This document shows, one piece after another, positions 8,437 through 14,168 of a DNA stretch of 64,000 nt. Each line of letters opens with the position of its first letter. The first letter of the stretch is position 1. The position numbers and the translations under genes are program-made. Below the pieces are notes generated by a model. It was not told the DNA's origin. It ran no database searches and was given only the letters and a program-made list of their open reading frames with translations. The stretch comes from Escherichia phage HMD-P3. The DNA is taken from the sequence record PQ462667.1; one strand, written 5' to 3'.

Positions 8437-8626
8437 GGGTTTAAACGCCGCTTTGGAAAACGCATTAATGCAGCGCTGGGAAACTGGCTATAAGGATGGT
8501 GTTGAATCCTGCGCTACTATGCTAGAAGTTATTGCTAATACCTTAATGGAGAAAGGCAATAAAGAATTAGCTGAGCTATTAGACAGTATTGGGCAAAACT
8601 TCAGAGAACAGGTGAAAAATGCGTAG
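8405..8626 (+). CDS. hypothetical small early protein (73 aa)
   Basis: GAGGAG RBS 6 nt upstream of ATG 8405. Confidence 0.5.
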   Translation: MAFSKPMLPDKGLNAALENALMQRWETGYKDGVESCATMLEVIANTLMEKGNKELAELLDSIGQNFREQVKNA

Positions 8627-9434
8627 ATTAATTATTATTAGTGGTGCAGGTTTGAGTGTTGAAAGTGGTGTACGAGCTTTTCGTACTGATACTGCTAGCG
8701 GTAAAGCATTGTGGGATGATTATGATCTAGAAGAAGTATGTAATATTCATGCCTTTCGCGGTAATTTTTATCATAAAACCCATATGTTTTACAACAAGCG
8801 TCGTGAAGAACTAAAAACTGTTGAACCCAATCTTGCGCATTTGCGTATTGGTGAATGGTATAAACAATATCCAGGTCAAATAGTAAACTTGACTACCAAT
8901 GTTGATGACCTTATTGAGCGTGCTGGCGTTCCACATAGTGACATTCTGCACATTCACGGATATTTAAAAGAGGTTGTTGTAGCTGATAACTACAATAGTA
9001 GCAATAAACGGATTATTGATGTAGGATACAATTCTATTGATCCAGATGATTATAAATGGGTTAAACCTAATGTAATCTTCTTTGGAGAGCATGCTCCAGC
9101 ATATGCGGAGATGTACAATGTTTTTGATGGTATTACCAGTCAAGATATGATCATTGTGGTTGGTTGCTCCAACCAAGTAATTAACTTCTACTGGGAATTA
9201 TTTCCTGTTCTTAATTTGACTGCTGCTAAGCTAATGGTTGTTAACTACTATGATAGTGCCCTAGCGGTGGAACCGGGCTATCAAGGTATGACTCGTAGTG
9301 AGATGTATCAACTGGAAGAACGTGGTATCCCTTACTGGAGTAAAGGTGCGGTAGATGCTTTCAGTGATCCTGATTTTATTGCTCGTGTAGAAGCTCATTT
9401 AGGGGGTAGACCTTATGTATCAGGAACTAAGTAA
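8619..9434 (+). CDS. Sir2-family protein lacking a zinc-ribbon module (NAD-dependent deacetylase / NADase-like)
   Basis: Sirtuin NAD-binding motif GAGLSVESGVRAFR near the N-terminus and HIHG catalytic-His motif; no CxxC...CxxC pairs anywhere in the protein. Confidence 0.75.
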   Translation: MRRLIIISGAGLSVESGVRAFRTDTASGKALWDDYDLEEVCNIHAFRGNFYHKTHMFYNKRREELKTVEPNLAHLRIGEWYKQYPGQIVNLTTNVDDLIERAGVPHSDILHIHGYLKEVVVADNYNSSNKRIIDVGYNSIDPDDYKWVKPNVIFFGEHAPAYAEMYNVFDGITSQDMIIVVGCSNQVINFYWELFPVLNLTAAKLMVVNYYDSALAVEPGYQGMTRSEMYQLEERGIPYWSKGAVDAFSDPDFIARVEAHLGGRPYVSGTK

Positions 9435-9927
9435 TACTCCAATTATTTTTCTAGACATTGATGGGGTGCTCAATTCGAGCATCTCCCACCATCATGCACC
9501 TGATAATGAAAAGATTTTCTTTGGAAGTGACTGGGTTTTCAAACCGCTTCTCAAGGCTTTTCAGGACTTTATTCGTCCTTCTCCAATAATGATTGTTGGA
9601 GTATCATCTTGGTTCTCTGTCAGAAATGAGATGGAGAACGTTCAGATTATGACCGGATTAGGTCTTATCGATCGCTTTCTTGGTACAACGGATTTTACTG
9701 GTGGTGGATTATCTAGGGGTAATTCTGTTCTTCGTTTCGTCGAAAAGCATAAGCTCAAACATTGGTGTGTACTTGATGATGCGGGTGCTATGATGTATCA
9801 GTATCCAACGGTTATAGTCAACGGTAGAACTGGGATAAATCTTCAAGATTTAAAAGCTGTTAGCTATATGCTAGAATTTAGCCCAGATCTTGAAATGTGT
9901 AAATCCTTACAACAATTTAAGGTGTAA
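9415..9927 (+). CDS. HAD-superfamily phosphatase-like protein
   Basis: HAD motif I FLDIDGVLN at the N-terminus; 170 aa; overlaps the Sir2-like gene by 20 nt. Confidence 0.6.
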   Translation: MYQELSNTPIIFLDIDGVLNSSISHHHAPDNEKIFFGSDWVFKPLLKAFQDFIRPSPIMIVGVSSWFSVRNEMENVQIMTGLGLIDRFLGTTDFTGGGLSRGNSVLRFVEKHKLKHWCVLDDAGAMMYQYPTVIVNGRTGINLQDLKAVSYMLEFSPDLEMCKSLQQFKV

Positions 9928-9929
9928 AT

Positions 9930-10358
9930 ATGTTCAATAATGTATTCTCTAAAGAAGCTAACCCAATTTTGGTTAACTTTTGGCGTACTCTCCCGGCTAG
10001 CCTGTATAATGAGGCTATTAACTCCTTGAAAATATGGTGTGAGAATAACGAAATCTCTTTTGCTTTTAAAGATGATGTTGATGAGGCCCCTTGTATTGGT
10101 TTAAGTGTGCAGGTAGAGGAGGGTCTTGAAGAGATTGTCGGCTGGAAAGAGTTAGATGAAATGGGCTTAGTTTTTGCGTTAAACTATAAGCTGTTTATGC
10201 CTGCTAAGCATCGCCTCGTTGTTAACTATAAAACTAGTGAATCTCCTGGTTTTCAGGTTAATGAACGTTATGGTTGGTCTTACTCACCGGAAGAAGTAAA
10301 TGAGGGGATTCAGAAACTTCGACGTTTCGGGTATATAATCCCAGGTTTAACTGCTTAA
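9930..10358 (+). CDS. hypothetical protein, paralog A of a tandem pair
   Basis: Shares PCIG ... ELD-x-MGL-x-ALN ... PGL motifs with the next ORF. Confidence 0.6.
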   Translation: MFNNVFSKEANPILVNFWRTLPASLYNEAINSLKIWCENNEISFAFKDDVDEAPCIGLSVQVEEGLEEIVGWKELDEMGLVFALNYKLFMPAKHRLVVNYKTSESPGFQVNERYGWSYSPEEVNEGIQKLRRFGYIIPGLTA

Positions 10359-10367
10359 GGAGGCAGA

Positions 10368-10757
10368 ATGGAACAAGTATATTGGCGTCAGATTGACCCT
10401 AGTTTGGTGAAACGTGCGGAGAAGCTGCTACAACGTTGGTTGGGGGTAAGACAAGCCTCCTTTACTTTTCCGGAACAGCAAATAGATGACCCCTGCATTG
10501 GTGTTTTCCTGTCTGGATATGCCGGGGAATGGGAATTGGATTGGAATGAATTGTCTGCTATGGGCTTGATTGTTGCCCTAAACTTCTCTATATTCCATCC
10601 ACGTGGTTTGGCCATATGTCGTGTGCCGGATGATGGTTGTTCGCCCCATCTTTTACAGGTGGAAGATGATATTTGGGAGTACACTCCAGATATTCTCAAA
10701 GAAGCTAAAGAACAATTAAACCGTGTTGGGATCTATGTTCCGGGGTTAAGTGACTAA
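10368..10757 (+). CDS. hypothetical protein, paralog B of a tandem pair
   Basis: Same conserved blocks as 9930..10358 (DPCIGV, MGLIVALNF, PGLSD); AGGAG RBS upstream. Confidence 0.6.
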   Translation: MEQVYWRQIDPSLVKRAEKLLQRWLGVRQASFTFPEQQIDDPCIGVFLSGYAGEWELDWNELSAMGLIVALNFSIFHPRGLAICRVPDDGCSPHLLQVEDDIWEYTPDILKEAKEQLNRVGIYVPGLSD

Positions 10758-10851
10758 TGATTTTTATTAGCTGAACTCTGATTACCGAGTCATTTTGGCT
10801 CGGTTTTCTCTATGCTCAAGGACACTGATAGCACCTTTGGGAAAATTTTAC

Positions 10852-10880
10852 TTGCAGGATGCCCAAAATCTTGATATAAT
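10852..10880 (+). promoter_or_regulatory. strong sigma70-type promoter with extended -10 (TTGCAG, 17 bp, TGaTATAAT) with no ORF directly behind it
   Basis: -35 10852..10857, -10 10875..10880, followed by the T5-type downstream box ATTGAATTGAGAGA; the next convincing start codon is about 500 nt away. Confidence 0.6.
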
Positions 10881-11378
10881 ATTTATATTGAATTGAGAGA
10901 CATTAGTAAAAATTGATTTTGCTAATTTTTCTTGTTTACAATCCGCGATACGGAACAGTTAGGCTGCCCCATTAAGGGTTGTTTTAACTGTTACGTGTTA
11001 GTTTTTAAACAAATAATTAATAGAATACTTAGCGATCTACATCCCGTAGGAACCCTGGTAAGGCCTCGAAGCAACCTAGTGTGAGGTGGTTGTGAAGTGA
11101 GACGGGAAGAGTGAAAAACTCTGAGAAGTGATGACGTAAGGTATACTGCATCTAGTATGAGCTAGTATATGAAGCATTAGGTGAGCAAATCTGGCTTAGC
11201 GGCCATCCTCAAGGATTTGTGCGGTATAGTGAAGCGGCAGTGTAGCGTGAAAGGGGAAGTTGCCACCCCCCTTCAGTATTTGCGATTAATTGTTGAGAAA
11301 TTGACAGTAACAGTTGTTCTATTCTTTCTGAATAGTCCTAAAGAAAACTTATTTCATTTCCAACACAGGAGTATTGTT

Positions 11379-14168
11379 GTGTTCTCAATCCTACAAGGTC
11401 ATGCAGGATTTCATCGCGATTTAGCCACAGGCAATTGGCGGGAAGTTAAAGCAGAAAACTATCTTTTTGCTAAAAGATTTTCCTCAAAGCATCCTGAAGG
11501 TAAACCAGCTTCAATGCCCTTCAAGTTTGATGTAATTGATGAAGTTGATCCTCAAACCCTAGTAGAAATGCTCCCTCTTATGAGACGTTTAACGTCTGAC
11601 CCTCATATCGTTGCGGTACGAGGTCGATGTCTTGCACCTAAAAATAATGTGCGACGTAAGAAGGGCAACTTTAATGTATCTAACCCAAGTCATATAATTG
11701 CAATGGACGTGGATGGTATTGTAGATACAGGTGGTTGTAACAAGTTTGATCTTGTTGGCATGGCTCGACATATTATTAGAATGTTAAATAGTATTAGTGA
11801 GGATATGTTTCCTCTTGATGCAGGGTTTATCGCTCATGCATCGTCTTCGGCTGGGCTAAAACCAGGTATCCGAATGCACTTAATACTAGAATCTAATGTT
11901 AAAGTAACTCAGGGTCAAATCAAATTCTTATTTACATCTATCAACGAAAGTAGTAGACAAAAGTATGGCTTTGATATTGCCGACTTAGCTTATTACTCTT
12001 CCGTACAGCTCCATTATTTTGCAGATCCGTTATTTACTGATGGTATAGTAGATCCGTTTAAAGCGGAGGGTGCTTCACGTCTGGTATTTGTTAAGGGTTC
12101 TAAGGTAAACTTACCCAATAATCTGGTTGATTATGAAACAACTAGAGGTGAGTTTAAAGAGGAGTTTTACTCTTTACTCGACCAAATTAAGGGTAAAAAA
12201 GCTGCCTCTGATAAAGTAGAGGAAACTATCAGCGAACTAGAAGAAGCTGAGGATGGAGTGTACCTACGTATCATACCTAAACTCTATCACAGAGCTTTAG
12301 AGGATGGTGTTGATTTTGCGTGGCTAGAAAAAGAAATCCGTCCAGCCTTATCAGAATATATTGCAACTAAAGATAATAGTCGTAATATTCAAGATTACTT
12401 TAATAACGGTCGTAAACAGGCTCTGAAAGCGTTTGTTAATAATTCTAAACGCGATATACCTGATGTTTTAAAAGGTATTCCACTTAAAAAGCTAGAAACT
12501 AATTCTTTAGAAACTGATAACTTCTTGAAATTAAATACTGTACCACCAGAAGGTTATATGACTTTTGTAAAAGCAAGTCTAGGTACAGGTAAAACTACGG
12601 CGGTTGTGCGTTGGTTAGATTCAGGAGTTATTAAGGGTAATTTCTTAGCAATTACCAATACTCGAGCACTGGTATCTTCAAATGCTAAGAAATTTAGTGC
12701 AGGACAATATGATAAGTCTGTAGATATGCTTAATTTTAAGCGTGGCGCTATTGACCGTATGTCCACAACTATTCACTCTTTGCATAAGTTCAAGAGTTTT
12801 ATTGGTCAAATCGATGCAATCTTTATCGATGAATGTGATGCTGTAATGAATGACCTATTATTCGCCCCGGTTGTTAAACAACGTCGTGAATGTATTCAGG
12901 TTCTTCGGGATATTCTTGCAACTGCAAAAATCATTATATTATCTGATGGGGATATTAGTGCTGAAACAATTGAAGCATATGGTTCTTTGATTGAGTTTGA
13001 TAAACCGGTTGCATTTTATAATCACCACCGTAAGATGCTGTCAAAAGCTCATGCTTATGAATTCCCTGATGAATCCAGTATTTGGGTTGCACTTCAGACT
13101 TCTCTAGAGATGGGTGAGAAGTCTATCCTAGTATCTGACTGTGGTCCAGATGAACTGAATGAGAAGGGTATGGCATTGCGTCGTAATACGGGTGCGTTAG
13201 TTAAGGAAATCCACTCAAACTCTACGTCTGATGTAGATATTCGACGTATTCTGGATTACACAACTAATGAGCTAATTGACCAACAAATTGATTGCTTATT
13301 ATGTAGTCCATCCGTAACGAGTGGTGTTGACTTTAACTATTTTGATAACGTATTCGTTATCACTAGAACCTCAAACCAAGCGCCAAACATGCGTTTTCAA
13401 GCAATCAGGCGCGACCGTGGCGCTCAGAACATTTATTATTTTATTGATAAATCTACGAGTGGATTCTCCGCAGGTTCTGAACAATATAACATTGATGAAG
13501 GTTGGCTGGAGTTAGCACAGCAATTATACGCACGTCGTAGGGAGCTGGAATCTAGGAACTATACTAGTACTTTACGTTATTACTTGCTTGATCAGGGTGC
13601 AACTATTGATATTTTCAGTGAAAGCTGGGGAACTATCGAAGGTGCAGGAAAAGAGTATACGGAAGAGCGAATCAAAGCTATTTTGTATTCAACTCCTGAT
13701 TATTGTGCTCCACGCCATGCAGATGCGTATGAGGCTAAACTACTTCTTGTTCGCTATTATCATCTTGAGTCTATTAAAGATGTAACAGTTGAGCACGTTG
13801 AACAATATATCAAGGATAAACCGAATGATCGAGCTGCATTCTTCCATAAGATGCACGAGATGTTCTGGGAAGATATTAAGAAGTGTTCAAATGTCACTAT
13901 CAAACCATTCATAGAAGCTCTGAAAGGTAAGAAGAAAGATTTCTTCCTTAAAACAGGTCAGAGTGCTAACCCAAAATATGCAAGAATGTATCTTGGTATG
14001 ATGGGTATTGGTAAGGATATGAACACTGAAAATATTGTAGACTGGTACAGAACCTATTGTAAAATCGAGTGTATGCCAATCCCGTATAAGTTTATGACTG
14101 ATGAGGAGAAACATATGCATGATGAAGCAATGGCAGAGCTAGGTGCTAGAAATGACAGTGAAGAATAA
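11379..14168 (+). CDS. replication ATPase / helicase-like protein (putative origin-binding protein)
   Basis: Walker A SLGTGKTT and Walker B IFIDECD in the middle of a protein of about 930 aa. Start placed at GTG 11379 (AGGAG RBS 7 nt upstream); the longest ORF begins at 11181 but that extension has no RBS. Confidence 0.7.
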   Translation: MFSILQGHAGFHRDLATGNWREVKAENYLFAKRFSSKHPEGKPASMPFKFDVIDEVDPQTLVEMLPLMRRLTSDPHIVAVRGRCLAPKNNVRRKKGNFNVSNPSHIIAMDVDGIVDTGGCNKFDLVGMARHIIRMLNSISEDMFPLDAGFIAHASSSAGLKPGIRMHLILESNVKVTQGQIKFLFTSINESSRQKYGFDIADLAYYSSVQLHYFADPLFTDGIVDPFKAEGASRLVFVKGSKVNLPNNLVDYETTRGEFKEEFYSLLDQIKGKKAASDKVEETISELEEAEDGVYLRIIPKLYHRALEDGVDFAWLEKEIRPALSEYIATKDNSRNIQDYFNNGRKQALKAFVNNSKRDIPDVLKGIPLKKLETNSLETDNFLKLNTVPPEGYMTFVKASLGTGKTTAVVRWLDSGVIKGNFLAITNTRALVSSNAKKFSAGQYDKSVDMLNFKRGAIDRMSTTIHSLHKFKSFIGQIDAIFIDECDAVMNDLLFAPVVKQRRECIQVLRDILATAKIIILSDGDISAETIEAYGSLIEFDKPVAFYNHHRKMLSKAHAYEFPDESSIWVALQTSLEMGEKSILVSDCGPDELNEKGMALRRNTGALVKEIHSNSTSDVDIRRILDYTTNELIDQQIDCLLCSPSVTSGVDFNYFDNVFVITRTSNQAPNMRFQAIRRDRGAQNIYYFIDKSTSGFSAGSEQYNIDEGWLELAQQLYARRRELESRNYTSTLRYYLLDQGATIDIFSESWGTIEGAGKEYTEERIKAILYSTPDYCAPRHADAYEAKLLLVRYYHLESIKDVTVEHVEQYIKDKPNDRAAFFHKMHEMFWEDIKKCSNVTIKPFIEALKGKKKDFFLKTGQSANPKYARMYLGMMGIGKDMNTENIVDWYRTYCKIECMPIPYKFMTDEEKHMHDEAMAELGARNDSEE

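Follow-up and report, generated by a model that had tools for sequence, protein, structure and literature searches.

The window analysed here is a stretch of 64,000 nucleotides (nt) from Escherichia phage HMD-P3 (record PQ462667.1), a T5-like phage of the genus Tequintavirus. A gap at 10758-11378 separates a DUF7415 gene (10368-10757, homologue of T5p105) from the helicase gene D2. The comparison with related phages strongly supports the view that this interval encodes, on its + strand, a large structured RNA of about 430-450 nt. The architecture is kept in six lineages: the type A of the window, the type B of T5 and Eps7, and the lineages of the Klebsiella phages, the Providencia phages, Pectobacterium My1 and DU_PP_V. 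Between them the leader sequence has diverged to about 55-65% identity, with the architecture unchanged. From this fold we infer, tentatively, a cis-acting and possibly processed 5' leader that would control D2, the presumed replication initiator.

Covariation and architecture of the RNA

The helices were named P1 to P11 in this analysis (Table 1). Within each allele, the structure was predicted from a single sequence and checked on alignments that are unambiguous because their members are 97-98% identical. As controls, the 3' partners were slid and, for type A, the alignment was shuffled (500 times). The type A structure has 158 pairs, with 99.4% of the cells paired. Six of these pairs (31 cells) changed on both sides, compared with 0-1 in the slid controls, and none of the 500 shuffles reached the observed cells or the covariation score. 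Type B has 160 pairs, 97.7% of the cells being paired, and changes on both sides affect 7 pairs (34 cells), its controls having 0-1.

The changes can be followed in single helices. Two pairs of P4 go from A-U to G-C together in type A, where its strands read CUACA/UGUAG or CUGCG/CGCAG. Type B has CUGUG/CACAG and CUGCG/CGCAG at this place, the Klebsiella lineage CUAGAA/UUCUAG and the Providencia lineage UUGCUA/UAGCAA. P9 is formed by AUAGAA/UUCUAU or UCAGAA/UUCUGA. A compensatory change from G-C to U-A is present in P10 (AAGGGG/CCCCUU or AAGUGG/CCACUU), and the type A alignment shows compensatory changes in P5 and P6 as well. In the same alignment, the 39 pairs of P3 are more than 99% paired, with numerous changes from G-U to A-U, and the 17 pairs of P1 are 100% paired. 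The stem sequence of P1 is changed in the Klebsiella, Providencia, My1 and DU_PP_V lineages. Read by eye, the outer stem of P2 is CC/GG in the window and GG/CC in My1 and DU_PP_V.

On the + strand of types A and B, G-U pairs are common, as are exchanges of G-U with A-U or G-C. The other strand would have A-C mismatches at these pairs, so the constraint acts on the + strand, that is, on the transcript of the promoter.

The covariance model R1 represents the P7 domain (11132-11239) and was made from type A sequences alone. In a search of 57 kb, its best match was the full-length homologous site in every other lineage, with E-values of 1.6e-5 (DU_PP_V), 2e-4 (Klebsiella), 2e-3 (Providencia), 7e-3 (My1), 8e-3 (Eps7) and 4e-2 (T5). 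The R1 alignment of this 108-nt domain (14 sequences) has 93.9% of its cells paired, and 34 of the 36 pairs change on both sides. Its covariation score is 0.72, compared with 0.08-0.15 for slid and 0.21 for shuffled alignments, and 0 of 500 shuffles reach it. These numbers are inflated by the fitting of the alignment to the model, and the margin is large. The model R3, which covers P5-P6 and was likewise made from type A alone, recovers DU_PP_V (E 5e-10) and My1 (E 1.5e-5). Type B, Klebsiella and Providencia were not found by it at E up to 1, so the cross-lineage pair support of P5-P6 is weaker and rests on independent folds. This half of the core is more plastic. Across lineages, P5-P6 and the outer stem of P2 have weaker support than P1, P3, P4, P7, P9 and P10.

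For the independent folds, each lineage was folded alone with only P4 and P9 fixed, at a cost of 0-8 kcal/mol compared with the free minimum. Type A (L004), Klebsiella and DU_PP_V give one and the same abstract shape, [[[][]][][[][]]], which My1 and Eps7 nearly match. Only 4 of 1600 dinucleotide shuffles have this shape. The whole RNA (10887-11345) folds at -130.7 kcal/mol, and its shuffles at -112.1 +/- 5.5 (z = -3.4). An alignment of all lineages by sequence only (MAFFT L-INS-i with RNAalifold) gave almost no structure, and anchored segments likewise failed. Such an alignment is uninformative because the core is only about 55-65% identical.

Compensatory substitutions are present in independent lineages beyond the controls. 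The independent lineages are few (six, two of them with internal variants). Shuffle statistics are inflated by relatedness; the slid controls and the model-based detection are independent of it. Two of the analyses proposed by the first-pass annotation of this DNA were carried out. The covariation analysis across T5-like genomes gave a conserved fold in six lineages, and the alignment among relatives gave conserved flanks around a core with two alleles.

Table 1. Predicted helices of the RNA and sites flanking it (window coordinates)
Feature	Position	Strand	Description
Intrinsic-terminator-like hairpin	10784..10810 (hairpin 10784-10804)	+	ACCGAGTCATTTTGGCTCGGT, then T-run; outside the RNA
Sigma-70 promoter, T5 early type	10840..10886	+	putative, read from the sequence
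P1	10894..10934	+	two-part 5' hairpin, GAGAGA-c-AUUAGUAAAA ... UUUUGCUAAU-u-UUUCUU
P2	10938..10982	+	stem around nearly invariant ACGGAACAGUuaGGCUGCC (10950-10968), containing ACGGAACAGUnnGGCUGCC
P3, 5' strand	10985..11029	+	AU-rich helix of ~39 base pairs (bp) closing the core
P3, 3' strand	11275..11316	+	ends in GUAACAGUU (11307-11315)
P4, 5' strand	11032..11042	+	GCG-au-CUACAU; pairs with 11240-11248
P4, 3' strand	11240..11248	+	GUGUAG-CGU
P5, three-way element	11043-47/11102-06	+	with two inner hairpins; within 11043..11131
P6, hairpin	11108-11122	+	followed by conserved CUGAGAAGUGA (11121-11131)
P7	11134-49 / 11221-37	+	encloses P8 and P9; P7 domain 11132..11239
P8, hairpin	11150-82	+	inside P7
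P9	11185-92 / 11213-20	+	carries invariant GCUUAGCGGC at 11194-11203
P10, hairpin	11251..11273	+	AAGGGG ... CCCCUU, loop aaGUUGCCAcc
P11, small 3' hairpin	11319..11335	+	CUAUUC-uuucu-GAAUAG
Shine-Dalgarno sequence and D2 start	11367..11381	+	AGGAG 11367-71; GTG 11379-81

P1 begins 8 nt past the predicted transcription start, and its 5' strand overlaps a conserved TTGAGAG box 3' of the promoter. The P2 motif is common to lineages A, B, Klebsiella, My1 and DU_PP_V. The core closed by P3 has about 210-250 nt, with nested junctions. P4 encloses P5, P6, the conserved GAGAAGUG and P7, and it meets P3 and P10 in a three-way junction. A loop like that of P10, GUUGCCA or GUGACCA, is present in My1, DU_PP_V and the Klebsiella lineage. 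P11 is not terminator-like because no U-run stands behind it. The invariant unpaired nucleotides of the RNA are GCUUAGCGG (P9 loop), GAGAAGUG and ACGGAACAGU. The motif GCTTAGCGG occurs in the Klebsiella, Providencia, My1 and DU_PP_V leaders. The spacing of the anchors is near-constant in the six lineages: 138-147 nt separate the P4 5' strand from P9, P9 itself takes up 34-37 nt, and the P4 3' strand follows 16-20 nt later. The sequence AACAGUU/AACUGUU has three copies in types A and B, which could in principle compete for pairing; the triple is not conserved in the remaining lineages.

The first-pass annotation had described a long inverted repeat in this interval. The repeat is present (10950-10961/10985-10996, 12 nt, 92% complementary). 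Nevertheless, it is not a conserved helix, because its first arm lies in the P2 motif and its second in the 5' strand of P3. This second arm (10985-10996) has its P3 partner in GTAACAGTT at 11307-11315. The same reader had suggested a structured regulatory leader or a small RNA. The structure is conserved and covaries in six lineages, and a regulatory role may follow from it. The RNA is structured, as the first of these suggestions had it, but with about 430-450 nt it is not small.

Locus, relatives and variants

The promoter proposed at 10852-10880 was confirmed at its hexamers. It has a -35 element TTGCAG (10852-57), a 17-nt spacer, the TG of an extended -10 (10872-73) and TATAAT (10875-80). 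An A/T-rich stretch precedes it, and transcription is predicted to start near A 10887. The T5 record AY692264 carries a 'putative promoter' at the homologous position, and the promoter is kept in 6 of 6 lineages. The consensus scanner overlooked it because only 3 of the 6 bases of the -35 hexamer are consensus.

The terminator-like hairpin at 10784-10804, a feature absent from the first-pass annotation, closes the upstream DUF7415 operon and is kept in T5-type relatives. Directly 5' of it stand two tandem paralogous genes (9930-10358 and 10368-10757) with one DUF7415 domain each. Further upstream, at 8619-9434, the window has an intact Sir2-like open reading frame (ORF) of 271 amino acids; in T5 and DT57C, the annotation calls its homologue defective or truncated.

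Between the promoter and the GTG of D2 there are about 490 nt without a conserved ORF. D2 is a helicase of 929 amino acids, from GTG 11379 to 14168. This start had been proposed before and agrees with the annotated D2 start in T5, DT57C, Eps7 and Lindwurm; the Klebsiella and Pectobacterium lineages (three lineages) have ATG at the same position. Recombinant D2 cloned from the GTG 11379 start is an active bipolar superfamily 2 helicase (PMC3632103). The protein resembles a 'replication origin binding protein', with the Pfam domain Herpes_ori_bp at residues 394-533. Its residues 1-390 (window 11379-12548) have no Pfam domain or PDB relative by sequence. By eye, HIIAMDVD and SSSAGLKPGIRMH in this N-terminal part resemble the DxD and sGxGxH motifs of archaeo-eukaryotic primases. 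Some records name the D2 gene 'DNA primase C'.

The leader region is 99% identical to that of Salmonella phage SP33, and 523-535 phage records match it. The window holds one copy only, as judged by the model search. In the alignment of nine relatives, the promoter, the first ~110 transcribed nt and the last ~70 nt before D2 are near-invariant. The central ~290 nt, however, form two highly different alleles, A in the window and B in T5 and Eps7. They are about 64% identical over the core, and the central segment shares only GGCTTAGCGGCCA. More distant phages have the same order of a strong promoter, 470-620 non-coding nt and D2. Their D2 proteins are 73% (Klebsiella Sugarland/IME260-like), 57% (Providencia PSTCR5-like), 67% (My1) and 74% (DU_PP_V) identical to that of the window. 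The range across the six lineages is 57-99%.

Several relatives carry insertions at this locus. An optional module of 89-97 nt, AGTGAAGCTGACAAGGG...GAAAAAGT, stands between P1 and P2 and is flanked by a duplication of TTTTTCTT. It is present in DT57C (L001 3001-3849), with an insertion point that corresponds to ~10934 of the window. The module is identical in type A and type B backgrounds and occurs once per genome in 51 phage records. It had no Rfam match, and could be an additional RNA domain or else a small mobile insertion. In other phages (L007/L008 743-1195, L013, L020, L025, L033), the terminator hairpin and the leader are separated by a gene for an HNH homing endonuclease, which brings its own promoter. 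Its insertion site corresponds to ~10805-10850 of the window, and the native promoter is replaced. L033 retains both promoters, the promoter and the start of P1 being duplicated. A decayed homing-endonuclease gene was considered as the origin of the core. It was ruled out by the covariation and by the position of the HNH gene, which lies 5' of the promoter and not in the core. In Salmonella phage oselot (L006 759-789), ATTTTGCTA is tandemly expanded in the 3' strand of P1 and annotated as a repeat_region. Public records among the hits (H10, H16, H23, H26, H33, H36) mis-annotate the leader as 'tail tube protein', 'exonuclease' or small hypotheticals.

Among the more distant relatives, Aeromonas phage TS3 (L090/L087) has about 1.6 kb of unannotated sequence 5' of obp, its D2 homologue. 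Two CTTAGCGG motifs are found there, and the loop of an 8-bp stem holds one of them (CCCGAAAA-GCUUAGCGG-UUUUUCGGG). At ~90 nt before obp stands a strong terminator-like hairpin; it was seen by eye and is not listed by the terminator scan. On TS3, the model R2 gives only a weak match (E 0.9). This stretch could hold a diverged form of the RNA, or a duplicated one. Four Vibrio T5-like loci (L042, L043, L088, L089) have a gap of 640-730 nt without credible genes before the D2 homologue. No significant match was found in them with R1 (L042, L043) or R2 (all four). In Vibrio phage D145, two terminator-like hairpins stand in tandem 85-130 nt before D2.

Beyond the T5-like phages, pattern scans of viral contigs, metagenomes and 185,579 genomes (one per bacterial species) did not find the RNA. 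The pattern matches outside this group are chance matches in GC-rich bacterial contigs, none with a D2 homologue or a model match at the site. R2 also gave two identical weak matches (L094 7784-7867 and L078 2119-2202; 17.1 bits, E 0.04, 62% GC). These contigs are unrelated and bacterial, L094 being a metagenome-assembled genome of Saccharibacteria. The matches lie off the pattern site and are probably due to chance.

No known family was recognised in the interval. A search of Rfam 15 (4227 models) at E up to 1 over 9500-12500 returned only a chance match to a small nucleolar RNA (17 bits, gathering threshold 36), and seven related loci searched in the same way gave no match inside the leader. 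ARAGORN predicted 0 transfer or transfer-messenger RNA genes in 10300-11900. An expression platform of the riboswitch or attenuator kind was not found either, as no terminator-like site lies in 10810-11379. In a literature search we found no description of a T5 non-coding RNA, leader or origin. In its text, a catalogue from 2023 with more than 10,000 candidate viral RNAs makes no reference to this one; its supplementary tables, which the search did not cover, may hold it unnamed. As far as found, the family of this RNA is undescribed. Its general kind, a structured leader or non-coding RNA, is known; its size and complexity are unusual.

Possible roles of the RNA

The cis-acting reading is the simplest and, in our view, the likeliest of those considered. 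Under it, host RNA polymerase would start near 10887 at the strong T5 early promoter. The first ~450 nt would then fold, with P1, P2 displaying the invariant motif, and P3 closing the core of ~250 nt. Transcription would continue without a terminator into D2, 40-60 nt downstream. The mostly unpaired P2 motif, GAGAAGUG and the GCUUAGCGG loop are invariant and would be positioned by freely varying helices. These elements may bind a protein, either D2 itself or another early factor of phage or host, and the bound factor would set the translation or the stability of the D2 message. P1, at the extreme 5' end, could stabilise this message. Finally, RNase III may cut P3, whose length and regularity fit such a substrate. 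The cut would release the core and leave a D2 message with a new 5' end.

The order promoter-RNA-D2, present in six lineages, supports the link in cis, and so does the D2-frame extension upstream, which is not conserved. The site scan of the window showed no second promoter between the fold and D2, and no terminator in 10810-11379. Because terminator and second promoter are missing in six lineages, D2 would be translated from the transcript that starts with the RNA.

Several observations weigh against this role. The start site, the 3' end, the processing and the effect on D2 are all inferred from the sequence. A multi-junction fold of 430 nt far exceeds the known translational operators. The alignments made by covariance models lean towards the model's own structure. 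No helix conserved across lineages was found that would hide the ribosome-binding site of D2 or join the fold to it. The candidates are lineage-specific, such as GCGAUAC (10945-51) with GUAUUGU (11371-77), and a hairpin with the Shine-Dalgarno sequence in its loop is present in types A, B and My1 only. Moreover, the core evolves fast, with two old alleles of ~64% identity within phages that are otherwise 85-95% identical. This could indicate a trans-acting or arms-race role.

A stand-alone RNA acting in trans (as a ribozyme, ribonucleoprotein scaffold, anti-defence RNA or decoy) is the second most likely reading, and we give it less credit. It would be produced abundantly by the strong promoter and processed from the D2 transcript, and D2 would use the read-through. 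The size and complexity of the fold are typical of large functional RNAs and not of operators. The promoter is very strong, whereas an initiator protein would probably be needed in small amounts. The old core alleles recombine between Tequintavirus and Epseptimavirus, as diversifying selection predicts. The optional 89-nt module of the 51 phage records, together with P3 as a plausible RNase III site, would also fit this role. The terminator-like hairpins before D2 in the possibly homologous stretches of Vibrio D145 and Aeromonas TS3 (by eye in the latter) speak for it and count against a leader in cis. However, none of the six confirmed lineages has a terminator, the RNA is always directly 5' of D2, and the window has a single copy. 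Complements of the invariant loops in the window (at most 1 mismatch) are only isolated matches, and no partner is known.

We consider it rather unlikely that the RNA belongs to a new class of large phage RNA with a separate biochemical function, either as a released ribozyme or ribonucleoprotein core or as an allele-specific partner that D2 recognises to start replication.

A role as origin-associated pre-primer is improbable. Here, D2 and the polymerase would use an R-loop or the structured RNA to start replication; in a variant, the displaced + strand of the DNA could take the same fold. The position fits this idea, next to the UL9-like helicase D2 (Pfam Herpes_ori_bp; PMC3632103) and at ~49% of the 121.75-kb T5 genome (L028 coordinates). 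The RNA allele and the D2 allele travel together, and the strong promoter is followed by the AT-rich sequence of the P3 arms. In this allele, a G-rich RNA would lie over a C-poor template (34% G and 12% C at 11080-11260). Electron microscopy reportedly placed early T5 origins in the interior of the molecule.

The proposal of an origin or iteron region, made in the first-pass annotation, received no support. We found no tandem repeats, and the only direct repeats belong to two families, each consisting of two copies of 10-11 nt. An iteron origin would show at least three conserved direct repeats of ~17-22 bp beside an AT-rich element, and no such set is present. The purine-rich stretch with GTGA units exists at 11080-11260. 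It is 63.5% purine, with 8 GTGA against 1.5 expected (0 of 2000 mononucleotide shuffles reach 8), and only 3 GTGA[AG]G (P = 0.004). Nevertheless, it is specific to this allele: the other lineages have 1-3 copies of GTGA, and there is no conserved G-rich segment. The cumulative GC skew has its minimum at ~6 kb and its maximum at ~32 kb, without a turn at the leader (11 kb). These turns probably reflect the switch of gene orientation rather than replication. No promoter-like site was found on the - strand in 10300-11900, where an antisense regulator of the ColE1 RNA II type would have its promoter. The G-U pairs are kept on the + strand only, and known R-loop origins need no covarying fold of at least 10 helices. 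In addition, the strand bias of T5 recombineering indicates mainly unidirectional replication from one end (PMC10055335), which argues against a dominant central bidirectional origin.

That the interval codes for protein, through small ORFs or by extending D2 N-terminally from GTG 11181, is hardly credible, and so is a decaying remnant without function. In the window, the D2 frame stays open as far back as 11181; tiny 'hypothetical proteins' are annotated here in some records, and homing-endonuclease genes insert in the same intergenic region in some phages. However, neither coding constraint nor decay predicts compensatory substitutions in stems, and the annotated small ORFs span the allele boundary. 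The extension, correctly taken as non-coding before, is interrupted by stop codons in relatives both near and far. Its open stretch is 66 codons long in the window and shorter elsewhere: a close relative has 30 and T5 has 26, the Klebsiella lineage 13, and My1, DU_PP_V and Providencia 0-4 (0-42 overall outside the window). No conserved open frame with a start codon was found.

Known systems and significance

The leaders of T4 genes 32 and 43 and of f1 gene II are autoregulated and structured. The T4 gene 32 pseudoknot, the T4 gene 43 operator and the f1 gene II leader, bound by the gene V protein, are likewise structures in the 5' untranslated region of a replication gene. They stand on the same transcript, just 5' of the ribosome-binding site, and a protein may set translation in T5 by analogy. 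In contrast, these operators have 30-100 nt and one or two helices, and the T5 RNA has ~430 nt and at least 11 helices with nested junctions. Unlike them, it has no known binding protein, and no conserved helix occluding the ribosome-binding site was found.

The leader shares with ColE1 RNA II, T4 oriF and oriG and the T7 primary origins a strong promoter ~0.5 kb upstream, stem-loops and the neighbourhood of a replication gene. Unlike ColE1 RNA II, it has neither the promoter of an antisense RNA I nor a conserved G-rich segment that forms a hybrid. The T5 strand-bias data (PMC10055335) argue against initiation at the leader, which sets it apart from all these origins.

GOLLD, ROOL, OLE, HEARO and raiA are also RNAs of several hundred nt, with covarying multi-junction folds, phage-associated and without an assigned biochemical function. 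The T5 RNA differs from them in matching no Rfam 15 model (E up to 1), in its presence in T5-like phages only and in its fixed place as the leader of one gene. The RNase III helices of the T7 early messages and of the lambda N leader are, like P3, long and near-continuous duplexes in an early transcript 5' of a gene. The T7 helices are simple intergenic hairpins, whereas P3 (~39 bp, a predicted site) closes a folded core of ~250 nt.

Few structured RNAs longer than 300 nt are well supported, and time and again such RNAs have proved to be ribozymes or ribonucleoprotein machines of an unusual kind. T5 itself is a classic model among phages, and many groups isolate relatives of it for use in therapy and biocontrol. 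To our knowledge, the start of T5 replication and the control of its initiator helicase D2 are still unexplained.

Hundreds of GenBank records are blank, misnamed or filled with spurious small ORFs at this locus, and a covariance model would correct their annotation. In practical terms, the RNA belongs to a genetically tractable phage and has a defined promoter. It also exists in natural alleles, with or without the optional 89-nt module, and nature already supplies many compensatory mutants to study. If the RNA were a partner of D2 or a new class, the two old alleles would be variants of specificity or escape. As a partner of D2, it would give the first sequence-level handle on the unmapped origin of T5.

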